Virus record (IMG/VR): IMGVR_UViG_3300045988_087586
Direction: 5' to 3' (one strand)
DNA: 18,704 nucleotides
From: a virus
Shown here: in pieces, positions 1 to 18,704 of the stretch
Numbering within the stretch: the first letter of the stretch is position 1
Layout of the letters: every line of letters starts with the position of its first letter
Notes under the pieces: model-generated
What the model was told of the DNA's origin: nothing
Seen by the model: the letters and a program-made list of their open reading frames with translations, nothing else
Databases searched by the model: none
Made by a program: the position numbers and the translations under genes

Positions 1-336
1 TGGGAGGGGTGTGGGTTTGTGTGAAGATTTTCCCTTGTGGTTTTTTTTTATTGTGTGTTATTTTTTTTTGTTCTGTGTTGTGTGGTGTTTGTTGTGTTTG
101 GGTGTGTGTGTTAGATTTTTTTTAGTCCAGTTTGTCAATTTTTTTTATTGACACAATGTCAATGGTTGTATGTGCAATGTTTTTTATGTGCGTATTGATT
201 AACTGGGTTAACTCATGCTGTCTAATTATTGGTAGGTTACGGTTTTGTAACCGTAGTTTGCCGACCGGTAGGTAGGTGTCTTTTATTATCTTGCGTTCTT
301 TTGTTTTTGGGCGTGTCGTTGTTTTGTTTGTGTTAT
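1..336. repeat. Left inverted terminal repeat (ITR) of a linear protein-primed genome
   Basis: 1-318 is identical to the reverse complement of 18387-18704. There is a TT vs CC mismatch at 319-320, then 321-336 match again. All homopolymer runs (T9, T9, T8, T8, T6) were checked on both arms. Confidence 0.97.
133..163. promoter_or_regulatory. Cluster of three TGTCAAT/ATTGACA heptamers inside the ITR; includes an inward-facing TTGACA (-35-like) at 148-153
   Basis: TGTCAAT at 133-139, ATTGACA at 147-153 and TGTCAAT at 157-163 form two overlapping palindromes. No convincing -10 lies at 17 bp; the best is TGCAAT at 173-178. Function as promoter, operator or origin element is unresolved. Confidence 0.35.
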
Positions 337-2793: not shown

Positions 2794-3228
2794 ATGGAAA
2801 ACACTAATACCGCACTTGTCGCATTCAATACCGAAAGCACTGAACTCGGCACAGTCCAGCACTTCATCGACACCTCCACTCGTGAAGGCAAAATCAAGCT
2901 CTACTCGGCACTACAGAACGCCGAAAAGTTGGACGAACATTTGAACGAAAACCTGAACATGGTGAACGCCGTCGCTCAGGCCGTGCAAGTGACTGACGAT
3001 CAGACGGGCGAAATCTCCAATACCGTGCGTGTCATCATCGTAACCGACGATAACAAGGCGTATGCGGCCACCTCCCCCACTTTGGCTGCCGGATTGAATA
3101 CCATGTTCGGCATTTTTGGAACGCCGAACACTTGGGACGCTCCGCTTGCTATCAAGGTGGTGGAACGTCGTTCCCGCCGTGGCTTCAAGTTTTTCAGCAT
3201 CGAGCCGGTGGATGAAGCGACGAAGTGA
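2794..3228 (+). CDS. Single-stranded DNA-binding protein, phi29 p5-like
   Basis: SD AAGGGAAAGG. The N-terminus MENTN.. and blocks VNAVAQAVQVTDD..., ..AYAATSPTLAAGL.. and ..IKVVERRSRRGFKFFSIEP parallel recalled phi29 p5 (MENTN.., ANAIAQYKQVSD.., ..LYSAISKTVAEAA.., ..VKVVQGTSSKGNVFFSLQL). Its position lies upstream of the TP and polymerase genes. Confidence 0.75.
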   Translation: MENTNTALVAFNTESTELGTVQHFIDTSTREGKIKLYSALQNAEKLDEHLNENLNMVNAVAQAVQVTDDQTGEISNTVRVIIVTDDNKAYAATSPTLAAGLNTMFGIFGTPNTWDAPLAIKVVERRSRRGFKFFSIEPVDEATK

Positions 3229-3312: not shown

Positions 3313-4284
3313 ATGTCTCGCAGTCGGAAACGAAAGCACGTCAAGGCACGTCAAGCCGCGCAGGCACGCGCCGCGCGTAACGTCGAACAGCTCGGAGCCT
3401 ACTCTCACTCAAATCTTGCAAAAACCGCTGATAAACAGTTGGTCAATATCGCGAAAACCCTAGGCAAGGAATGGGAGCGGCAGAAGAGACAGACCATAGC
3501 GGAAGCGAAAGCAACCCAATACCACGCCAACGCCGTGGAAAAACCGACAAAAAAAGACATCATGTTTGCCCAACGCACCCCTATAACGAATGCTCAGATA
3601 GAAGCGGAACCCGTGGCGAAACGGCGCAAGCTGCTCAGACAGCAGCAGCGGAAAATCAATGCGGCACGACGGAAGATCAACGACTGGAACCGCGAACGGG
3701 CAATGCCGAAGCGTAGCGTGTACGATCAGCGTATAGAAGAACTTGCTGGAACTACTGGCGAGGGTTTTGGGCGTAATCAAATCATCCCGTCAAAACTTAC
3801 GGACTTTTTGCAAATGACAAATGTTCTGAGCGACGAGGCGTTCGTGCGCGGTCAATTGGAAAGCGGACACCGTAATGAACTGCGTGAACAGATACATGAT
3901 GCCGCCGAGATCTTGGGATTGCGCACCGAGCAAAAAAAACATAAGACGCCCAAAAAGCAAGGGAGGGGTAGGCGAACCGAAGATCTATACGGCGAGCGTG
4001 AGTGGCCGTCTTACATGCCTCATGGACGCTACGAGATTTTTGAAAAAATCTTGGCCACCTCGCTCGGCTCGAAACGGTTGAAACGATTCCGCAGTCTATC
4101 CGCCGCACAGAAACGCGCTTTCATCGAACAGACGGACGCCCCCCGTATCGTTTTTGATTGGACGGTGTATGACCCCGTTCGACACGGTTTTACGTCGATT
4201 TTCAGGGGCAACAGTGAGGGGTATCAGCGCTCACGACGGCAGTTCGACCGCTGGATGGAGGAAGCCGGCGCGCTGGAAAAGTAG
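3313..4284 (+). CDS. Candidate terminal protein (replication primer), 323 aa, very basic
   Basis: ATG at 3313 follows AAAAGGGG. The ORF-track TTG start at 3277 lies inside the hairpin. The gene sits immediately upstream of the protein-primed polymerase as in phi29. Its N-terminus MSRSRKRKHVKARQ is like phi29 TP MARSPRIR... No catalytic motif is expected, so the call is positional. Confidence 0.6.
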   Translation: MSRSRKRKHVKARQAAQARAARNVEQLGAYSHSNLAKTADKQLVNIAKTLGKEWERQKRQTIAEAKATQYHANAVEKPTKKDIMFAQRTPITNAQIEAEPVAKRRKLLRQQQRKINAARRKINDWNRERAMPKRSVYDQRIEELAGTTGEGFGRNQIIPSKLTDFLQMTNVLSDEAFVRGQLESGHRNELREQIHDAAEILGLRTEQKKHKTPKKQGRGRRTEDLYGEREWPSYMPHGRYEIFEKILATSLGSKRLKRFRSLSAAQKRAFIEQTDAPRIVFDWTVYDPVRHGFTSIFRGNSEGYQRSRRQFDRWMEEAGALEK

Positions 4285-4311: not shown

Positions 4312-5766
4312 ATGGAATTGCATGACGATAAAAGGGTAGGCTTGTGGTGTGCGGATAATGTCGTACGATTTACGGACGGTACCGCATTGCATGACATTAT
4401 CGCACCCAGTCGGTTGCTGGCGTCCATCATGACGGGAGGCAAACTCACCGTCTACACGACTAACCCCGATATTTTAGACCCTTTTATCGCACATGTCGTA
4501 CACGTACTCCCTCATAATGAGCATAATGCAAATCTGAGCTGGGATGCGATAATATCCCAAAAAGGCAAATTTTTTAGTTTTACCGTGCGTATCGACCGCG
4601 AGAATTCCGCACGCTTTTTCGATATATCGAATCTTTTGCGCGAAAACTGCAAGCTTACCATGACTGACACTCAACTGCTCACTATTTTGCGCGAATACGA
4701 TCAGCGCGGCTTGTGTAAGATCACAGCCGGTGGGGCGAGTATGGAGGCTTTCGCATCCGGAGAATGGAGATGGTATTACGACAAATTCCCCCAGCTCGAA
4801 CCGGACGCGAAAAAATCATTGCATGATGCCTATATCGGCGGCTTTATGGTTGCCAAAGAGGGGGCATATGGGAGGGCTATCGATGTTGACTGTAATTCCA
4901 TGTATCCGTCCATATTGCGAGACGAATGGCTTCCATGGGGAGTACCGGAACCGTACGAAGGACGATACGTGCAAGATGATGATATGCCGTTGCATTGTGA
5001 TGAAATCACGTTCCGCGCGGAATTGAAACCGGACGGATACCCTTTTTTATTAGACAATCGTAGTGTCTACGGACTTAACCGACTCACCAGTACGCGCGGC
5101 TATATCACGCTCGTGCTCACCGATATCGACCAGCAATTGCTCTACGAGAATTACGATGTAAGCGTCTACCGGCATGTGAGGGGGTGGAAGTTCCGGCGTT
5201 CCAAGGGGTTTTTCCGCTCGTTTATCGACGAATGGGGTGAATTGAAGCAGCATGCGACGGGGGAGCGTAGACAAATGGCGAAACTGATTATGAACGCACT
5301 CGTAGGGAAAATGGCGAGTCTGCCCAAAGGAGTCGTCATGCTCCCCTTATCCAAAGACGGCATAACCCTAGACTGGGACATTGCCCAGCGCGAAGAGTCG
5401 AATCTGAAAACCGACTATCTGCCAGTACCAGTATGGGTCAACGCTTATGCACGACGCAAACTCGTGGACGTATGCCACGCCAACGCCACCCGACTCTTGT
5501 ACGCCAACACGGACGGGTGTATCCTATCCGGCTGGGAGCCGGTGAAGTCATGCGAAATCCACCCTACCGAACTGGGCAGATGGAAAATCGCAGCCCGATA
5601 TGAAAGGCTCACTATTTTAGGCATGAACCGATATCAAGGGTGGAGGGATGATGGCGGGGTTGATATCTGCATGGCCGGAAGCCAATTTACGCAGCCCATT
5701 CCTTATGGAAAGTTCCGGCACGGCGTGCGAGTCATGGATGATTACGGTACATTGGTCATGTTATGA
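4312..5766 (+). CDS. Family-B DNA polymerase, protein-primed phi29 type, compact (484 aa)
   Basis: Blocks matching recalled phi29 polymerase: KITAGGASMEAF (RMTAGSDSLKGF), AYIGGF (AYRGGF), DVDCNSMYPS (motif A, DVNSLYPA), LPWGVPEPYEGRYVQDDDMPLH (LPYGEPIVFEGKYVWDEDYPLH), FIDEWGE...AKLIMNALVGK (motif B), LLYANTDG (motif C). Confidence 0.93.
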   Translation: MELHDDKRVGLWCADNVVRFTDGTALHDIIAPSRLLASIMTGGKLTVYTTNPDILDPFIAHVVHVLPHNEHNANLSWDAIISQKGKFFSFTVRIDRENSARFFDISNLLRENCKLTMTDTQLLTILREYDQRGLCKITAGGASMEAFASGEWRWYYDKFPQLEPDAKKSLHDAYIGGFMVAKEGAYGRAIDVDCNSMYPSILRDEWLPWGVPEPYEGRYVQDDDMPLHCDEITFRAELKPDGYPFLLDNRSVYGLNRLTSTRGYITLVLTDIDQQLLYENYDVSVYRHVRGWKFRRSKGFFRSFIDEWGELKQHATGERRQMAKLIMNALVGKMASLPKGVVMLPLSKDGITLDWDIAQREESNLKTDYLPVPVWVNAYARRKLVDVCHANATRLLYANTDGCILSGWEPVKSCEIHPTELGRWKIAARYERLTILGMNRYQGWRDDGGVDICMAGSQFTQPIPYGKFRHGVRVMDDYGTLVML

Positions 5767-8008: not shown

Positions 8009-8035
8009 TCGGTGACAGACAACGACAGGTAGAAT

Positions 8036-8073
8036 AGGTGCGAGGAGATAATCCTCGCACCTATTATTTATTT
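8036..8073 (+). terminator. Rho-independent terminator after the capsid gene
   Basis: Perfect 11-bp stem AGGTGCGAGGA-GATAA-TCCTCGCACCT followed by ATTATTTATTT. Confidence 0.8.
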
Positions 8074-8082
8074 GGAGGAATC

Positions 8083-14363: not shown

Positions 14364-15572
14364 ATGCCGACATTAGACGAATGGTTTGCTCAGACCGAAA
14401 ACCGTTTTTGGGACATGGACGGCGCGTACGGCGCGCAATGCTGGGACCTATGGGCCAAGTACAGCATGGACATGTACGCTATGTCTATCCAGGACTGCAT
14501 TACCCCCACCGGTTACGCGGGCGGACTATATACCGCATATCCGGTATCTACACGGTGCGAACAAGTGTACGAGCGTATCGCCGCAAGCGGATACTCTCCC
14601 GTGGCAGGGGATGTGGCAATATGGGGGTATAGCACTTATACCCCTTATACTCATGTGGCGATAGTCGCCGGCGACGGGGTTAAAGACGGTAGAATCTACG
14701 TCATCACCCAAAACCCTGACGCAAGCGCACTCAAATGGTTCCCCACCGCCGGACTGCTAGGCTACCTGCATCCCCGTACCATGCCAAAACCGGATTCGAG
14801 CAATCCCACCGGCAGTAACAATCAAGGACAGCTTGACGCAACGCGCGGAGGGGGGTGGATACACTGGCAGGGCGACAATCTCTACCTACATGAGACAGAC
14901 AACAGCGGCGCAAAAACCCGTGTCTTCTACAAGACTACTGCCAATAATTTTTTTGAAAAAGAGTCGCAATCGCAGCCGTCCGATAGTAGCGGCCAAGGGC
15001 ACCCGTCAAGTTCGACCAATGCGGAAAACTCGTACGCGCTTTATGTGGTCGGTACAGTGGAAGCCGGCCTACGATGGGACGCGGTAGAAGCGGCGAACCT
15101 CCAAGGCATTGGCATTGCGCAGTGGAGTTTTGGACGCCGCTTGCAAGTGCTCAACAGAATGCGCGAATCTGACCCAACCGGCTATATGGCATTCAAAACG
15201 GCGGCTCCCGAGATTGCGGCACTCATGGAATCAGGCGGAACGTTCACGGGGAACCTTACCGCCGTAGAGGCGGCAGCGTTCCAAACATGGGCGGCACGCA
15301 ATGAATCCCATGAGGGGCAGCGCAAGCAGTTCGCGGAAGACTATGCGGGATATCCGCAAGAGTATGCGGACAATAAGATGCAGATCTTGTGGGTCACAGC
15401 CTATCACCAGTCACCTGCCAACGCCTTGAAGGTACCGAAAGCTTCCAATCTAACGCAGCTGAAAAACAATATCCTCGCTACGTATCCATTCCAGCCATAC
15501 GTGAACCGATACAATCAGGCATACTCATTACTGTCCGTGTGGGATGGAAAGTCGAATCCGCCCGCATTTTAA
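14364..15572 (+). CDS. Tail-associated peptidoglycan hydrolase: N-terminal CHAP domain plus a C-terminal lysozyme-like domain
   Basis: CHAP signature: GAQCWDLW (Cys), YTHVAIV (His), ITQNP. The C-terminal block VEAGLRWDAVEAANLQGIGIAQWSFGRR looks like a phage tail lysozyme or transglycosylase. The position equals phi29 gp13. ATG 14364 is preferred over the ORF-track TTG 14304, which overlaps the fibre gene. Confidence 0.8.
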   Translation: MPTLDEWFAQTENRFWDMDGAYGAQCWDLWAKYSMDMYAMSIQDCITPTGYAGGLYTAYPVSTRCEQVYERIAASGYSPVAGDVAIWGYSTYTPYTHVAIVAGDGVKDGRIYVITQNPDASALKWFPTAGLLGYLHPRTMPKPDSSNPTGSNNQGQLDATRGGGWIHWQGDNLYLHETDNSGAKTRVFYKTTANNFFEKESQSQPSDSSGQGHPSSSTNAENSYALYVVGTVEAGLRWDAVEAANLQGIGIAQWSFGRRLQVLNRMRESDPTGYMAFKTAAPEIAALMESGGTFTGNLTAVEAAAFQTWAARNESHEGQRKQFAEDYAGYPQEYADNKMQILWVTAYHQSPANALKVPKASNLTQLKNNILATYPFQPYVNRYNQAYSLLSVWDGKSNPPAF

Positions 15573-15576
15573 AGTG

Positions 15577-15585
15577 TGATATAAT
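15577..15585 (+). promoter_or_regulatory. Extended -10 element TGaTATAAT
   Basis: Perfect TGnTATAAT 5 nt after the lysin stop. No -35. Confidence 0.45.
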
Positions 15586-15636
15586 GGGCGATGTCGGCAT
15601 ATGATGCTTTCCCTTGAGCCGACCGTAACACAATAA

Positions 15637-15680
15637 GGGGGTATGACGGTGGTCATGACGTCATACCCCCCATTATTTAT
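15637..15680 (+). terminator. Strong hairpin / probable terminator or attenuator upstream of the packaging ATPase
   Basis: 12-bp perfect stem GGGGGTATGACG-(10 nt)-CGTCATACCCCC followed by CATTATTTAT. The loop contains an alternative partner, GTCAT, for the 5' arm. Confidence 0.6.
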
Positions 15681-15697
15681 AGTGGAGGTGAGCTGGT

Positions 15698-16765
15698 ATG
15701 GCATTACAGACATTGGCCGAAGATGACTACTATGATCTGCACAATCTGCTCACCCGTAACGCGCCGTGGAATTTCGTGATCGGCGCGCGCGGCCTAGGCA
15801 AAACGTTTGCAGCGAAAAGATACGGAATCAAGGAATATGTCAAAAACGGCCACGAGTTCATCTACCTCAGGCGCACGGACGTGGAACAGCATCGTAAGGA
15901 AACATTCTTCAAAGACATTCAAGAGTTCTTTCCTTCGTACGAGTTTCGCGTCAATGGCGAAAAGGGACAATTGCATAAGACTTCGTGGGATGAAAAGGAT
16001 TGGCGGACATGCTGCTATTTCGTCGCACTATCTCAGGCGGGCGGGCTAAAATCGGTAGCCTACCCTAAAGTGCACTTGATTATTTTCGACGAAATCTTTC
16101 CCGACAATCTACGTTTTTTAAGCAATGAGGTAAATTCGTTTTCCGAGTTTTACAATACTGTTGACCGTTGGCAAGATAGAACAAAAGTACTGTTTTTATC
16201 CAATGCCGTGCAAAAAGCGAATCCGTATTTCGCGAAATACCGGCTGGACATTGGTTCCCAGCAAGCCAACCAGCAACAATACAAACTCTATTGCGGGGGG
16301 TTCGTATGTCTCGAATTGGCGGATTACGGTGGATTCTCAGCCAAAGTCGCGCATTCCAAGTTCGGCAGATTCCTAGAACAGTACGATGGCGACTATGCCG
16401 ACTATGCCATACGCAACAAATTCCGCGACGAATCGGACACGCTACTAGCACCCATTCCTAGTGACGGTGAATTGTCTTATATTCTAGACACTACAGACTA
16501 TGCACGTTTTGGCATATGGGCCTCCGTTTCGGAACGTGACGGACACGTTTCACAATATGTTTCACGACGCATCCCCAAAGACAACACCCGCCCCATCTAC
16601 ACGCTAGACCCCAACCATGTTGACGAAAAAACATGGTACGTCAAAAAGTCGGATGATATTATAAGACGGCTCACCACCGGCTATAGACTTGGTAAAATAA
16701 GATTCGATGATTCACAGGTCAAGGCCGATTTCGGACTGATCATCGGCGAATTATTAGGAAAATAG
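15698..16765 (+). CDS. DNA encapsidation ATPase (phi29 gp16-like)
   Basis: WNFVIGARGLGKTFAAK (Walker A; gp16 has LNFVIGARGIGKSYAMK), GHEFIYLRR, HLIIFDEI (Walker B), FLSNAVQKANPYF, KIRFDDSQVK. SD GGAGGTG. Confidence 0.95.
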   Translation: MALQTLAEDDYYDLHNLLTRNAPWNFVIGARGLGKTFAAKRYGIKEYVKNGHEFIYLRRTDVEQHRKETFFKDIQEFFPSYEFRVNGEKGQLHKTSWDEKDWRTCCYFVALSQAGGLKSVAYPKVHLIIFDEIFPDNLRFLSNEVNSFSEFYNTVDRWQDRTKVLFLSNAVQKANPYFAKYRLDIGSQQANQQQYKLYCGGFVCLELADYGGFSAKVAHSKFGRFLEQYDGDYADYAIRNKFRDESDTLLAPIPSDGELSYILDTTDYARFGIWASVSERDGHVSQYVSRRIPKDNTRPIYTLDPNHVDEKTWYVKKSDDIIRRLTTGYRLGKIRFDDSQVKADFGLIIGELLGK

Positions 16766-16779
16766 AAAGGATAATATCA

Positions 16780-17148
16780 ATGGCAATGACCACAACGGAT
16801 GTGTGGTGTATGCTTGCGGCAGTCTTTTTTATTATCGTAGACTACGTGACAGGCATTACAAAAGCCATCATGCAAGATAATCTCAGCTCAAAAAAAATGC
16901 GGGAGGGACTAGGCCACAAGTTCGCCTACTTCATTCTCGTATTGGTGGCGTGGTTCATCGACGAAATCAACTTACATGTCGATTTAGGGCTACCAGTGTC
17001 CGTATTTGTCTGTACAGTTGGCGGAATATGCTTAATCGAGCTTACGTCGATTTTGGAAAACATCACCGTAATCAATCCGGAACTGGCGGGCGCACCATTC
17101 ATGCAGATTTTTTCTCAATCCACAAGCGGAAAGCATAAGGAGGAATGA
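16780..17148 (+). CDS. Holin, three predicted TM segments (phage_holin_4-like)
   Basis: IIVDYVTGITKAIMQDNLSSKKMREGLGHKFAYFILVLVAWFID is typical of the toxin-secretion/phage-lysis holin family. The stop overlaps the endolysin start (ATGA). Confidence 0.85.
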   Translation: MAMTTTDVWCMLAAVFFIIVDYVTGITKAIMQDNLSSKKMREGLGHKFAYFILVLVAWFIDEINLHVDLGLPVSVFVCTVGGICLIELTSILENITVINPELAGAPFMQIFSQSTSGKHKEE

Positions 17149-18017
17149 TGGACGGAGTGAAATGGATAGGCTCACCAAACCACTACAACGGAAGAGAGGG
17201 GCACCACGTAACCCACATTACACTGCATATCATGGCAGGATATTTAGCCGGAACCGATAGCGTCTTCACTAATCCAGCATCACAAGCAAGCGCCCATTAT
17301 GGCATCGGCGCAGACGGCACCATACATCAATACGTAAGCGAAGCGGACGGCACCTACAGTGACGCCAACTACATTTCTAACAACAGCACTATCAGCATCG
17401 AACATGAAGGCGGCATACCACAAGCCACATGCACGCAAGCGTGTATCGACGCAAGCGCACGACTCTGCGCCGATATTGCACAACGATACGGACTTGGCAG
17501 ACTATGGCACGACGGCACCAATGGTAACATATGGCTTCATCGAGAAATCAGCGGCACCGACCACGCCACATGCCCCGATCTTGCTCCAAACGGATTGCCA
17601 TACCAACAAGTCATAGACAAGGCCAACGCCATACTTGAAGGTAAAACCAACAATAACAACAAAAGGAGCGAAAACATGGCAGAAATGATTTTTAACAACA
17701 CTGATACCGGCAAAGTATACTATTGGAATATTCTCACCGGCGTAAAATACATTGGTGTACCCGACCAGCTCGAAATTCTCAAGGCCGCAGGCGTCCCCAT
17801 GCACGAAACCAGCAGCAAGGGGCCTTGGATGACCCGCGCCCAAGAAATCACCGACAACACTCTAGCCGGCATAACCGCCACCGTCAACGCTCAAGCCGCA
17901 GCCATCGAAACACTATCCAAGTCTCTCGGTGTAAACCCTGACACAATCGCAAAAACCGTGCAAGATGCAGTAAAATCCAAACTAGACAGTCTCAAAATCA
18001 CAGTAACAGACAAGTAG
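17145..18017 (+). CDS. Endolysin: N-acetylmuramoyl-L-alanine amidase (Amidase_2/PGRP type) with a C-terminal putative wall-binding domain
   Basis: HITLHIMAG, AHYGIGADGTIHQYV, ISIEHEG and HREISGTDHATCPD (Zn-ligand His/Cys pattern). SD AAGGAGGA. Confidence 0.9.
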   Translation: MMDGVKWIGSPNHYNGREGHHVTHITLHIMAGYLAGTDSVFTNPASQASAHYGIGADGTIHQYVSEADGTYSDANYISNNSTISIEHEGGIPQATCTQACIDASARLCADIAQRYGLGRLWHDGTNGNIWLHREISGTDHATCPDLAPNGLPYQQVIDKANAILEGKTNNNNKRSENMAEMIFNNTDTGKVYYWNILTGVKYIGVPDQLEILKAAGVPMHETSSKGPWMTRAQEITDNTLAGITATVNAQAAAIETLSKSLGVNPDTIAKTVQDAVKSKLDSLKITVTDK

Positions 18018-18368: not shown

Positions 18369-18704
18369 ATAACACAAACAAAACGGCGACACGCCCAAAA
18401 ACAAAAGAACGCAAGATAATAAAAGACACCTACCTACCGGTCGGCAAACTACGGTTACAAAACCGTAACCTACCAATAATTAGACAGCATGAGTTAACCC
18501 AGTTAATCAATACGCACATAAAAAACATTGCACATACAACCATTGACATTGTGTCAATAAAAAAAATTGACAAACTGGACTAAAAAAAATCTAACACACA
18601 CACCCAAACACAACAAACACCACACAACACAGAACAAAAAAAAATAACACACAATAAAAAAAAACCACAAGGGAAAATCTTCACACAAACCCACACCCCT
18701 CCCA
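18369..18704. repeat. Right inverted terminal repeat (ITR)
   Basis: Reverse complement of 1-336 with a single dinucleotide difference (18385-18386 GG vs left 319-320 TT). The window ends exactly at the repeat. Confidence 0.97.

Follow-up and report, generated by a model that had tools for sequence, protein, structure and literature searches.

The inverted terminal repeats (ITRs) of the virus record IMGVR_UViG_3300045988_087586 end in DNA that is almost purely G and T on the strand whose 5′ end lies at the terminus, and this terminal strand purity is a character of the clade to which the virus belongs. The window, that is, the whole stretch of DNA that was analysed, is a complete linear genome of 18,704 nt, and it belongs to a phi29-like podophage of human-gut Bifidobacterium. 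Its nearest cultured relative is Bifidobacterium phage BP1 (82% identity across 80% of the genome), and the next-nearest are the B. dentium phages BD811P1-3. The two ITR arms are identical over 318 nt and 97% identical over 360 nt, with the first mismatches between them at 319-320. Positions 1-130, together with their mirror at 18575-18704, form the outer ITR and are probably the origin of protein-primed replication of this phage. This kind of element is known; what is new is the extreme composition, its extension over 2 kb and a non-reiterated 5′-GTG end. A description of such a G/T-pure end was not found in the literature that could be searched.

Among the first 120 positions there are 68 T, 40 G, 8 A and 4 C, which makes a G+T fraction of 0.90; at the genome-wide G+T of 0.476, the binomial probability of this is 8e-23. 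This exact recount agrees with an earlier reading of the DNA from its letters alone (the sequence-only reading), which had counted 4 C and 8 A in the first 120 nt and G or T everywhere else. No other 120-nt segment of the genome has a higher G+T (99th percentile, 0.725), and the mirror, 18585-18704, is the segment of that length that is richest in C and A on the + strand. Five T-tracts lie exactly where that reading had put them, namely T9 at 41-49, T9 at 61-69, T8 at 116-123, T8 at 139-146 and T6 at 180-185, and all + strand runs of at least eight T are inside the left ITR. The rare A and C of the outer ITR are concentrated in a conserved motif, GAAGATTTTCCC. Since the repeat is inverted, the G/T strand is the 5′-ended strand at both termini and the 3′ end of the template consists of C and A, as had been claimed. 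Finally, the single strands of 1-124 barely fold, with minimum free energies of -0.5 and -0.7 kcal/mol, compared with -6.5 to -20.5 kcal/mol in other 124-nt segments.

Across the clade, the 5′ strand is 78-96% G/T at the ends. The window is the extreme of its own group (G+T 0.90, versus 0.78-0.83 in the other close relatives) because its spacer at 76-112 is 100% G/T, where the mean of the close relatives is 0.75. The composition also recurs where the sequence does not. Three more distant relatives, L107, L109 and L110, have polymerases that are 75-77% identical to that of the window, and their end sequences are unrelated to it, with G+T of 0.84-0.96. The end of L107 (0.84) has the same layout as the window, with a G-rich end, GGGAAATTTTTCCC, T9 and T8, in a different sequence; that of L110 (0.96) has no A in its first 112 nt; and that of L109 (IMGVR_UViG_3300015180_000007, 1-305) reaches 0.92. 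The L109 end repeats a 100-nt unit three times in tandem, with 98% identity between the copies; the unit is 94% G/T and contains a (TTGG)n-like run. Outgroups were measured over the first 200 nt of each end and gave a G+T of 0.41 in the phi29-like Bacillus phage Goe22, 0.58 in Av-1, 0.55 (left) and 0.52 (right) in Curtobacterium phage Mantle, and 0.62 in the honeybee Bifidobacterium phage BadAztec1. The sequence-only reading had staked its case on whether related phages share the skew or have unskewed termini, and within the clade the skew is conserved, even between ends of unrelated sequence.

The position of the physical ends was sought with a 23-nt motif (positions 26-48) in IMG/VR and in metagenome contigs. 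This motif was found in 31 stretches of viral contigs, in each case 17-26 nt from the contig end, and in nine stretches of metagenome contigs, 17-31 nt from the end (31 nt in ODSV01000639). After removal of duplicates, 26 distinct ends were left, from BP1 and from IMG/VR and ENA contigs, which are independent assemblies. In six independent assemblies, the longest ends start with 5′-GTGGGAGG, which is one G beyond the start of the window; a seventh, equal to these in length, begins GGGGTTGG; and three assemblies, including the window, begin one base later, at T. In the GenBank record of BP1, an exact Illumina adapter at 259-291 abuts GTGGGAGG at 292. Many fragments must therefore have shared one physical end, as the junction would otherwise not have been assembled, and what this junction reports is the 3′ end of the template strand. 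Judged from these assembled sequences, the true end is most likely 5′-GTGGGAGGGG, with one G missing from the window at each end. It had been suggested that the T was a spurious base before a true end GGGAGGGG; the six assemblies and the BP1 junction point instead to a real T that a G precedes. An origin of the G/T end as an assembly artefact is rejected, as 26 distinct ends from independent assemblies carry this sequence equally far from the contig end.

Several public records of these phages are altered at their ends. The first 230 nt or so of the deposited BP1 genome (PQ571273) are misplaced phage sequence, after which comes the complete adapter, so that the genome proper runs from 292, and the opposite end of the record is short by about 88 nt of ITR. 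In the BD811P2 record (OP172659), most of the ITR is missing and the repeat is 55 nt long, beginning within the promoter region, and the record of BD811P1 (OP172658) has no terminal repeat; metagenomic relatives (L107 and L110) have 110-200 nt of extra G/T-pure end. Positions 1-19 of L039, an IMG/VR contig of the clade, are the Nextera mosaic-end sequence AGATGTGTATAAGAGACAG, and thus some public contig ends in the set carry adapter residue. A look-up of the first gene product for additional ends returned a sole contig, which lacked the full end, and scans for more ends of the distant group returned the same two contigs only.

The ITR can be divided into blocks that differ in their conservation, given below, where stated, as mean pairwise identity among the 26 distinct ends:

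1-318, + strand: left ITR, exact part, continuing at 97% identity between the arms to 360
1-25, + strand: terminal G-rich block TGGGAGGGGTGTGGGTTTGTGTGAA, 91% identity
26-40, + strand: invariant motif GATTTTCCCTTGTGG, 99% identity, with 3 of the 4 C of the first 120 nt
41-79, + strand: two 20-nt direct repeats, each headed by T9 (41-49 and 61-69), 96% identity
76-112, + strand: variable spacer, 73% identity, G+T ranging from 0.66 to 1.00 (1.00 in the window)
113-124, + strand: TTAGA-T8 element (TATTATA-T8 in relatives), 94% identity
139-146, + strand: fourth T-tract, T8, in an imperfect palindrome TGTCAAT-T6-ATTGACA, where the inner, more variable ITR begins
331-339, + strand: extended -10 element TGtTATGAT at the inner edge of the ITR, read from the sequence
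18387-18704, - strand: right ITR, mirror of 1-318

Conservation is thus highest in a short core, as positions 26-75 are 97% identical among the 26 ends, versus 73% for 76-112. Block 1-25, which in its complete form in relatives reads 5′-GTGGGAGGGG..., would be the recognition and initiation site for the complex of terminal protein (TP) and polymerase. The motif at 26-40 has a counterpart in the distant relative L107, which carries GGGAAATTTTTCCC where the window has GATTTTCCCTTGTGG, and the T9 positions of 41-79 are also preserved there. The repeats at 41-79 (Tandem Repeats Finder: period 20, 2 copies, 89% matches) are a candidate nucleation site for a p6-like protein or, alternatively, a candidate easily melted element. 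It is the spacer at 76-112 that lifts the G+T of 1-120 in the window from about 0.80 to 0.90. Despite its variable sequence, the distance from the second T9 to the third T-tract is near-constant, at 46 nt in the window and 47 nt in relatives.

Further inward, the -10 element has a counterpart in the right arm (TGtTATAGC), and relatives have TGcTATAAT or TGtTATAGT at the same place. It is followed by a ribosome-binding site, AAGGGAGG, at 355-362 and by an ATG at 371, and the outer ITR therefore lies upstream of early transcription. A strict sigma-70 consensus scan for promoters and terminators in 1-700 found none, and the TTGACG...TATTAT promoter pair of relatives, which has a 20-nt spacer, is not present in the window. 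The inner ITR (125-345 and its mirror) folds better than shuffled sequences (z -3.3), with a three-way junction (126-207) and a long hairpin (230-258); it contains two palindromes, TTGACAC..GTGTCAA and TTACGG..CCGTAA. This folding module is not essential, because it is absent from BP1-type ITRs. A packaging RNA within the ITR was considered and rejected, as there is no match to an Rfam packaging RNA anywhere in the genome despite the gp16-type motor.

The claim that the region is the outer ITR of a protein-primed phage is borne out by the presence of the ITR together with phi29-type replication genes. All replication genes of the window read inward, and the following lie together near the left end:

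2411-2725, + strand: p6-fold protein, 104 aa, directly upstream of the gene encoding SSB (single-stranded DNA-binding protein), assigned with AlphaFold2 and Foldseek
2794-3228, + strand: phi29-type SSB (PF17427, E 8.6e-18; phrog_6243)
3313-4284, + strand: candidate TP, 323 aa, placed between the SSB and polymerase genes
4312-5766, + strand: protein-primed family B DNA polymerase (PF03175, E 3.6e-25; phi29 polymerase 1xhx, E 3.5e-43)

In addition, a gp16-type packaging ATPase is encoded (profile match). The polymerase was aligned to that of phi29 (1xhx/2ex3) over phi29 residues 177-499. It has 484 aa versus 575 in phi29, and its alignment begins at phi29 residue 177; its N-terminal exonuclease part is about 50 residues shorter than that of phi29 and its C-terminus about 30 shorter. 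The candidate TP has a basic N-terminus and is predicted to be all-helical. Its position, in the order SSB-TP-polymerase, is the same as in Av-1 and the Curtobacterium phages, and it is homologous to BadAztec1 gp16, which has the same gene position (probability 97.9%). Comparison with known TPs (Av-1, phi29) and with the PDB by BLASTP, PDB search and hhalign gave no match, and the AlphaFold2 model, with a pLDDT of 50, was unusable and yields no structural link to a known TP.

The open reading frame at 2411-2725 gave a better model (mean pLDDT 81.6), for which Foldseek gave matches, at E 6.5e-6 to 2e-4, to p6 or 'double-strand binding protein' from phi29-like phages. Comparison with p6 by sequence (Pfam, BLASTP, hhalign) gave none, and the fold comparison alone succeeded. 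The counterpart of this frame is annotated as 'DNA methyltransferase' in BP1 and as 'hypothetical' elsewhere; it has a p6-like length and an SSB-adjacent position. A p6-type origin complex at the ends of the window is plausible on the strength of this model, because a p6-fold protein is encoded just upstream of the SSB gene. In phi29, the nucleation sites of p6 lie 46-68 and 62-125 bp from the ends, which p6 opens (PMC4974454), and the conserved elements of the window, 26-79 bp from the end, fall in the same range. The sequence-only reading had further proposed that the origin is of the kind that p6 exploits through intrinsic curvature, with T-tracts spaced at near multiples of the helical turn. 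Expressed in helical turns, the spacings of 20, 55, 23 and 41 bp come to 1.90, 5.24, 2.19 and 3.90, so that two of the four are near an integer and the phasing is no better than chance; the first of these pairs, at 20 bp, is the conserved 20-nt direct repeat. In a wedge-model scan, validated on phased and unphased A-tract controls, no segment of the genome is more curved than 41-180 (end-to-end ratio 0.83 versus a mean of 0.97; p 0.02-0.08 versus shuffles), a marginal result, and in 20 close relatives the ITR ranks only from 19th to 334th of about 1200 segments. Thus, of that proposal, the p6-type origin gains from the encoded p6-fold protein, and curvature as its basis does not hold, as it is not conserved.

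There is no terminal reiteration in the inferred end, 5′-GTGGG, or in the assembled start of the window, 5′-TGGG, that would serve sliding-back, such as AAA in phi29 or GGGG in PRD1; one relative starts 5′-GGGG (L012/L067). Nevertheless, if the inferred end is correct, bases 1 and 3 are both G in all seven of the ends that reach the terminus. In Bam35, initiation is directed by base 3 in the template 3′-ATAATA, and from there the TP-dNMP jumps back to the first base (PMC5175343). The G-T-G end could be compatible with single-nucleotide jumping-back of this type, going by its sequence, and a radically different initiation would not be needed. Consequently, the earlier remark that the end lacks the identical terminal nucleotides for one-step sliding-back stands, and the different way of initiation that it offered as one of two possibilities is not required, with G at both positions 1 and 3. 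The likeness to Bam35, a betatectivirus, consists of the X-Y-X terminal trinucleotide (template 3′-ATA in Bam35, 3′-CAC here); it is a likeness of sequence pattern on an inferred end, and Bam35 differs in belonging to another virus family and in priming with T rather than G.

The skew does not stop at the ITR. In the genes at 371-1891, G and T together make up 0.66-0.79 of third codon positions (a fraction termed GT3); GT3 is about 0.5 beyond 2400 and 0.26 in the last + strand gene, at 17145-18017. The gradient is likewise present in 20 close relatives, in BP1 and in BD811P2, where the last three + strand genes have a GT3 of 0.29, 0.22 and 0.16. At each end, therefore, the 5′-ended strand is G/T-rich for about 1.5-2.5 kb whichever strand codes, and the skew changes sign from one end to the other, peaks at third codon positions and is independent of gene orientation. 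The right-end gene is an endolysin gene with homologues in host contexts, and relative to these its third positions have gained A (0.10 to 0.30) and not T. More specifically, the A fraction at third positions is 0.08-0.13 in the homologues of host-like context and 0.26-0.33, with low T, in the phage copies. This gain of A on the + strand implies a C-to-T change, with T gained on the 5′-ended strand.

This pattern is that expected for a strand displaced by a fork that starts at the same end, and by analogy it resembles the vertebrate mitochondrial heavy strand. As in mitochondria and in adenovirus, which replicate by strand displacement, the displaced single strand would be the one enriched in G+T, the asymmetry is strongest at third codon positions and gene orientation is irrelevant. 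GT3 values of 0.7-0.87 are comparable in magnitude to those of mitochondrial fourfold sites. The strand asymmetry of the heavy strand and its mechanism have been described (PMC4182315, PMC3269012). The window is unlike mitochondria in that its gradient is steep (about 2 kb) and clade-specific, and in that an excess of C-to-T changes is not demonstrable from rare variants.

Taken together with the known phages, the following mechanism may be proposed. The TP/polymerase complex would recognise the end, most likely 5′-GTGGGAGG... with the template 3′-CACCCTCC, and would link dGMP to the TP; the terminal base would be restored through initiation directly at position 1 or through a jump of the Bam35 type from 3 to 1. 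The p6-like protein (2411-2725) would nucleate on the invariant GATTTTCCC motif and on the two T9-headed repeats (26-79) and would help to open the end. The G/T purity would then have two layers: a sequence-constrained core at 1-75, and a composition that recurs in relatives with unrelated ends and grades about 2 kb inward on the 5′-ended strand. The latter strand would be the one displaced, and left single-stranded, by the fork coming from that end, and the skew would be a replication-polarity asymmetry of the mitochondrial-heavy-strand kind, in which C and A are lost on the exposed strand. That the displaced and template strands are both unable to self-fold would be a by-product, possibly a selected one.

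Comparison with other protein-primed phages gives this mechanism its frame. Phi29 (Salasmaviridae) is like the window in its linear genome of about 19 kb, its protein-primed polymerase, its type of SSB and its gp16 ATPase, and its p6 may be set next to the 104-aa p6-fold protein that adjoins the SSB gene here. It is unlike the window in having a 6-bp ITR (AAAGTA), AAA reiteration and 5′ strands that lean, if at all, towards C/A (G+T 0.41), in contrast to a 318-bp ITR, a 5′-GTG end and a G/T 5′ strand. Among phi29-like phages with long ITRs, those of Actinobacteria and streptococci (Actinomyces phage Av-1, the Curtobacterium phages and Cp-1) share with the window the order SSB-TP-polymerase and inward early promoters in ITRs of tens to hundreds of bp, and Av-1 also has an alternating 5′-TGTGT start with no homopolymer. 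Nevertheless, phages of the Av-1 and Curtobacterium type have a left-end G+T of 0.55-0.62 in the first 200 nt and no 2-kb terminal gradient.

A number of observations weigh against the proposed mechanism or parts of it. The exact end is not certain, as two contigs run past the G, by GGAGGGAG in IMGVR_UViG_3300045988_008842 and by CAGGA in ODSV01000639. Both contigs (the latter as ODSV01000639.1) have extensions of 5-9 nt at both of their ends, which could be real heterogeneity (slippage on GGGAGG, for instance) or leftover adapter or assembly sequence. The candidate TP shows no detectable relation to any known TP, its structural model was of no use, and the predicted curvature is not conserved in relatives. 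With regard to the skew, the right-end gene family is rich in C at third positions even in host context, and part of its low GT3 is therefore inherited codon usage. Rare variants at third positions of the left 2 kb are mostly T to C (25, versus 4 C to T), the reverse of the change that exposure should bring. Mid-genome rare variants run in the opposite direction to those of the left 2 kb (Fisher p 0.004, all positions), and in singleton spectra the C>T/G>A rate ratio is 1.17 in the left 2 kb versus 0.45-0.55 mid-genome; counts in this rare-variant test are small, and wrong polarisation at fast-mutating sites may invert its result. In addition, exposure-driven mutation should also skew the phi29-like, Av-1 and Curtobacterium phages, which are unskewed. 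Finally, the model expects a gradient that spans half the genome, and the observed one falls off steeply within about 2 kb and breaks abruptly where the early genes give way to the SSB gene.

The foremost alternative, possible if unlikely, is that G/T purity is maintained by selection on single strands and not by mutation. A 5′ strand poor in C and A forms no hairpins and, while exposed, would offer few deaminable bases and little for the host uracil-DNA glycosylase; its sole partner would be the C/A arm of the same strand, which would favour coating by SSB or an adenovirus-like panhandle formed through the 318-bp ITR. This would fit with composition being kept while the sequence is replaced (L107, L109 and L110 versus the window), with both strands of 1-124 being free of structure, with the clade specificity of the skew and with the rare variants of the left 2 kb, which leave T (25 versus 4) as if T were held above its mutational equilibrium. 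By contrast, third codon positions and the least conserved spacer show the strongest effect, a pattern typical of mutation pressure; the rare-variant test has small counts and is exposed to wrong polarisation; and the inner ITR is rich in palindromes and folds well (z -3.3), so that structure is not avoided throughout the ITR. A more specific version, and a slightly more doubtful one, is a 'strand-pure telomere', in which selection would keep the 5′-ended strand free of C and A, unfoldable and undeaminable, and this would be paired with dGMP initiation on 3′-CAC by a Bam35-type jump. If true, dGMP initiation by such a jump would be a mechanism not known in tailed phages.

It is improbable that the T-tracts and the G/T tract are signals of the early promoter, such as UP-element-like sequences or a spacer, and that the skew is coupled to transcription rather than to replication. 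In favour of such coupling are the conserved inward extended -10 element (331-339) in which both ITR copies end, the fact that the G/T-rich strand of the left end codes all early genes and the coincidence of the drop in skew with a gene-block boundary near 2400. Nevertheless, the outer tract is 200-330 bp upstream of the promoter, which is too distant for an UP element, and the consensus scan of 1-700 gave no promoter-like site. In the + strand genes of the right end (17145-18017; 15063-17400 in BD811P2), moreover, it is the antisense strand that is G/T-rich, and conservation is far higher in the core at 26-75 than in the promoter-proximal ITR.

A eukaryotic-type telomere or G-quadruplex, or a low-complexity assembly or sequencing artefact, is scarcely credible and already contradicted by the data, since, for all the irregular TG(1-3)-like make-up, the G runs at 2-4, 6-9 and 13-15 and the (TTGG)n-like runs of L109, the G-rich strand is 5′ at the terminus, the reverse of telomeres, the micro-repeats are weak and of two to five copies only, a motif of four runs of at least three G is nowhere in the genome, the G runs are not conserved in BP1, and the sequence recurs in 26 distinct ends from independent studies. 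Of the description 'telomere-like', then, the composition holds, and a regular repeat unit, telomeric polarity and a G-quadruplex motif do not.

Two further features of the genome were noted outside its ends. Right after the major capsid gene, at 8033-8075, there is a 14-bp perfect hairpin with a T-rich tail, likely an intrinsic terminator; the sole Rfam match in the genome, to mir-241, is caused by this hairpin and is spurious. The lysis gene at the right end (17145-18017), which is the endolysin gene discussed above, has homologues of about 79% amino acid identity in high-GC, host-like or prophage contexts (L138-L146), with a third-position G+C of 0.73-0.89. These occurrences suggest that this gene has been exchanged between these podophages and Bifidobacterium prophages.

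Protein-primed origins have so far been studied in a few model phages with short, unskewed ends. The clade described here consists of abundant human-gut phages, with about 100 contigs in IMG/VR and more than 700 homologues of the candidate TP in public assemblies. Its true ends are now defined to about 1 nt, and among the records of its cultured relatives, those of BD811P1-3 prove to be truncated and that of BP1 carries adapter contamination. With strands of nearly a single composition, a well-defined conserved origin core and a p6-like protein, these phages form a natural test system, which could reveal how initiation by a phi29-type polymerase proceeds when the end is not reiterated, and in which one can ask whether damage to the displaced strand or selection for function shapes the strand composition of the ends.

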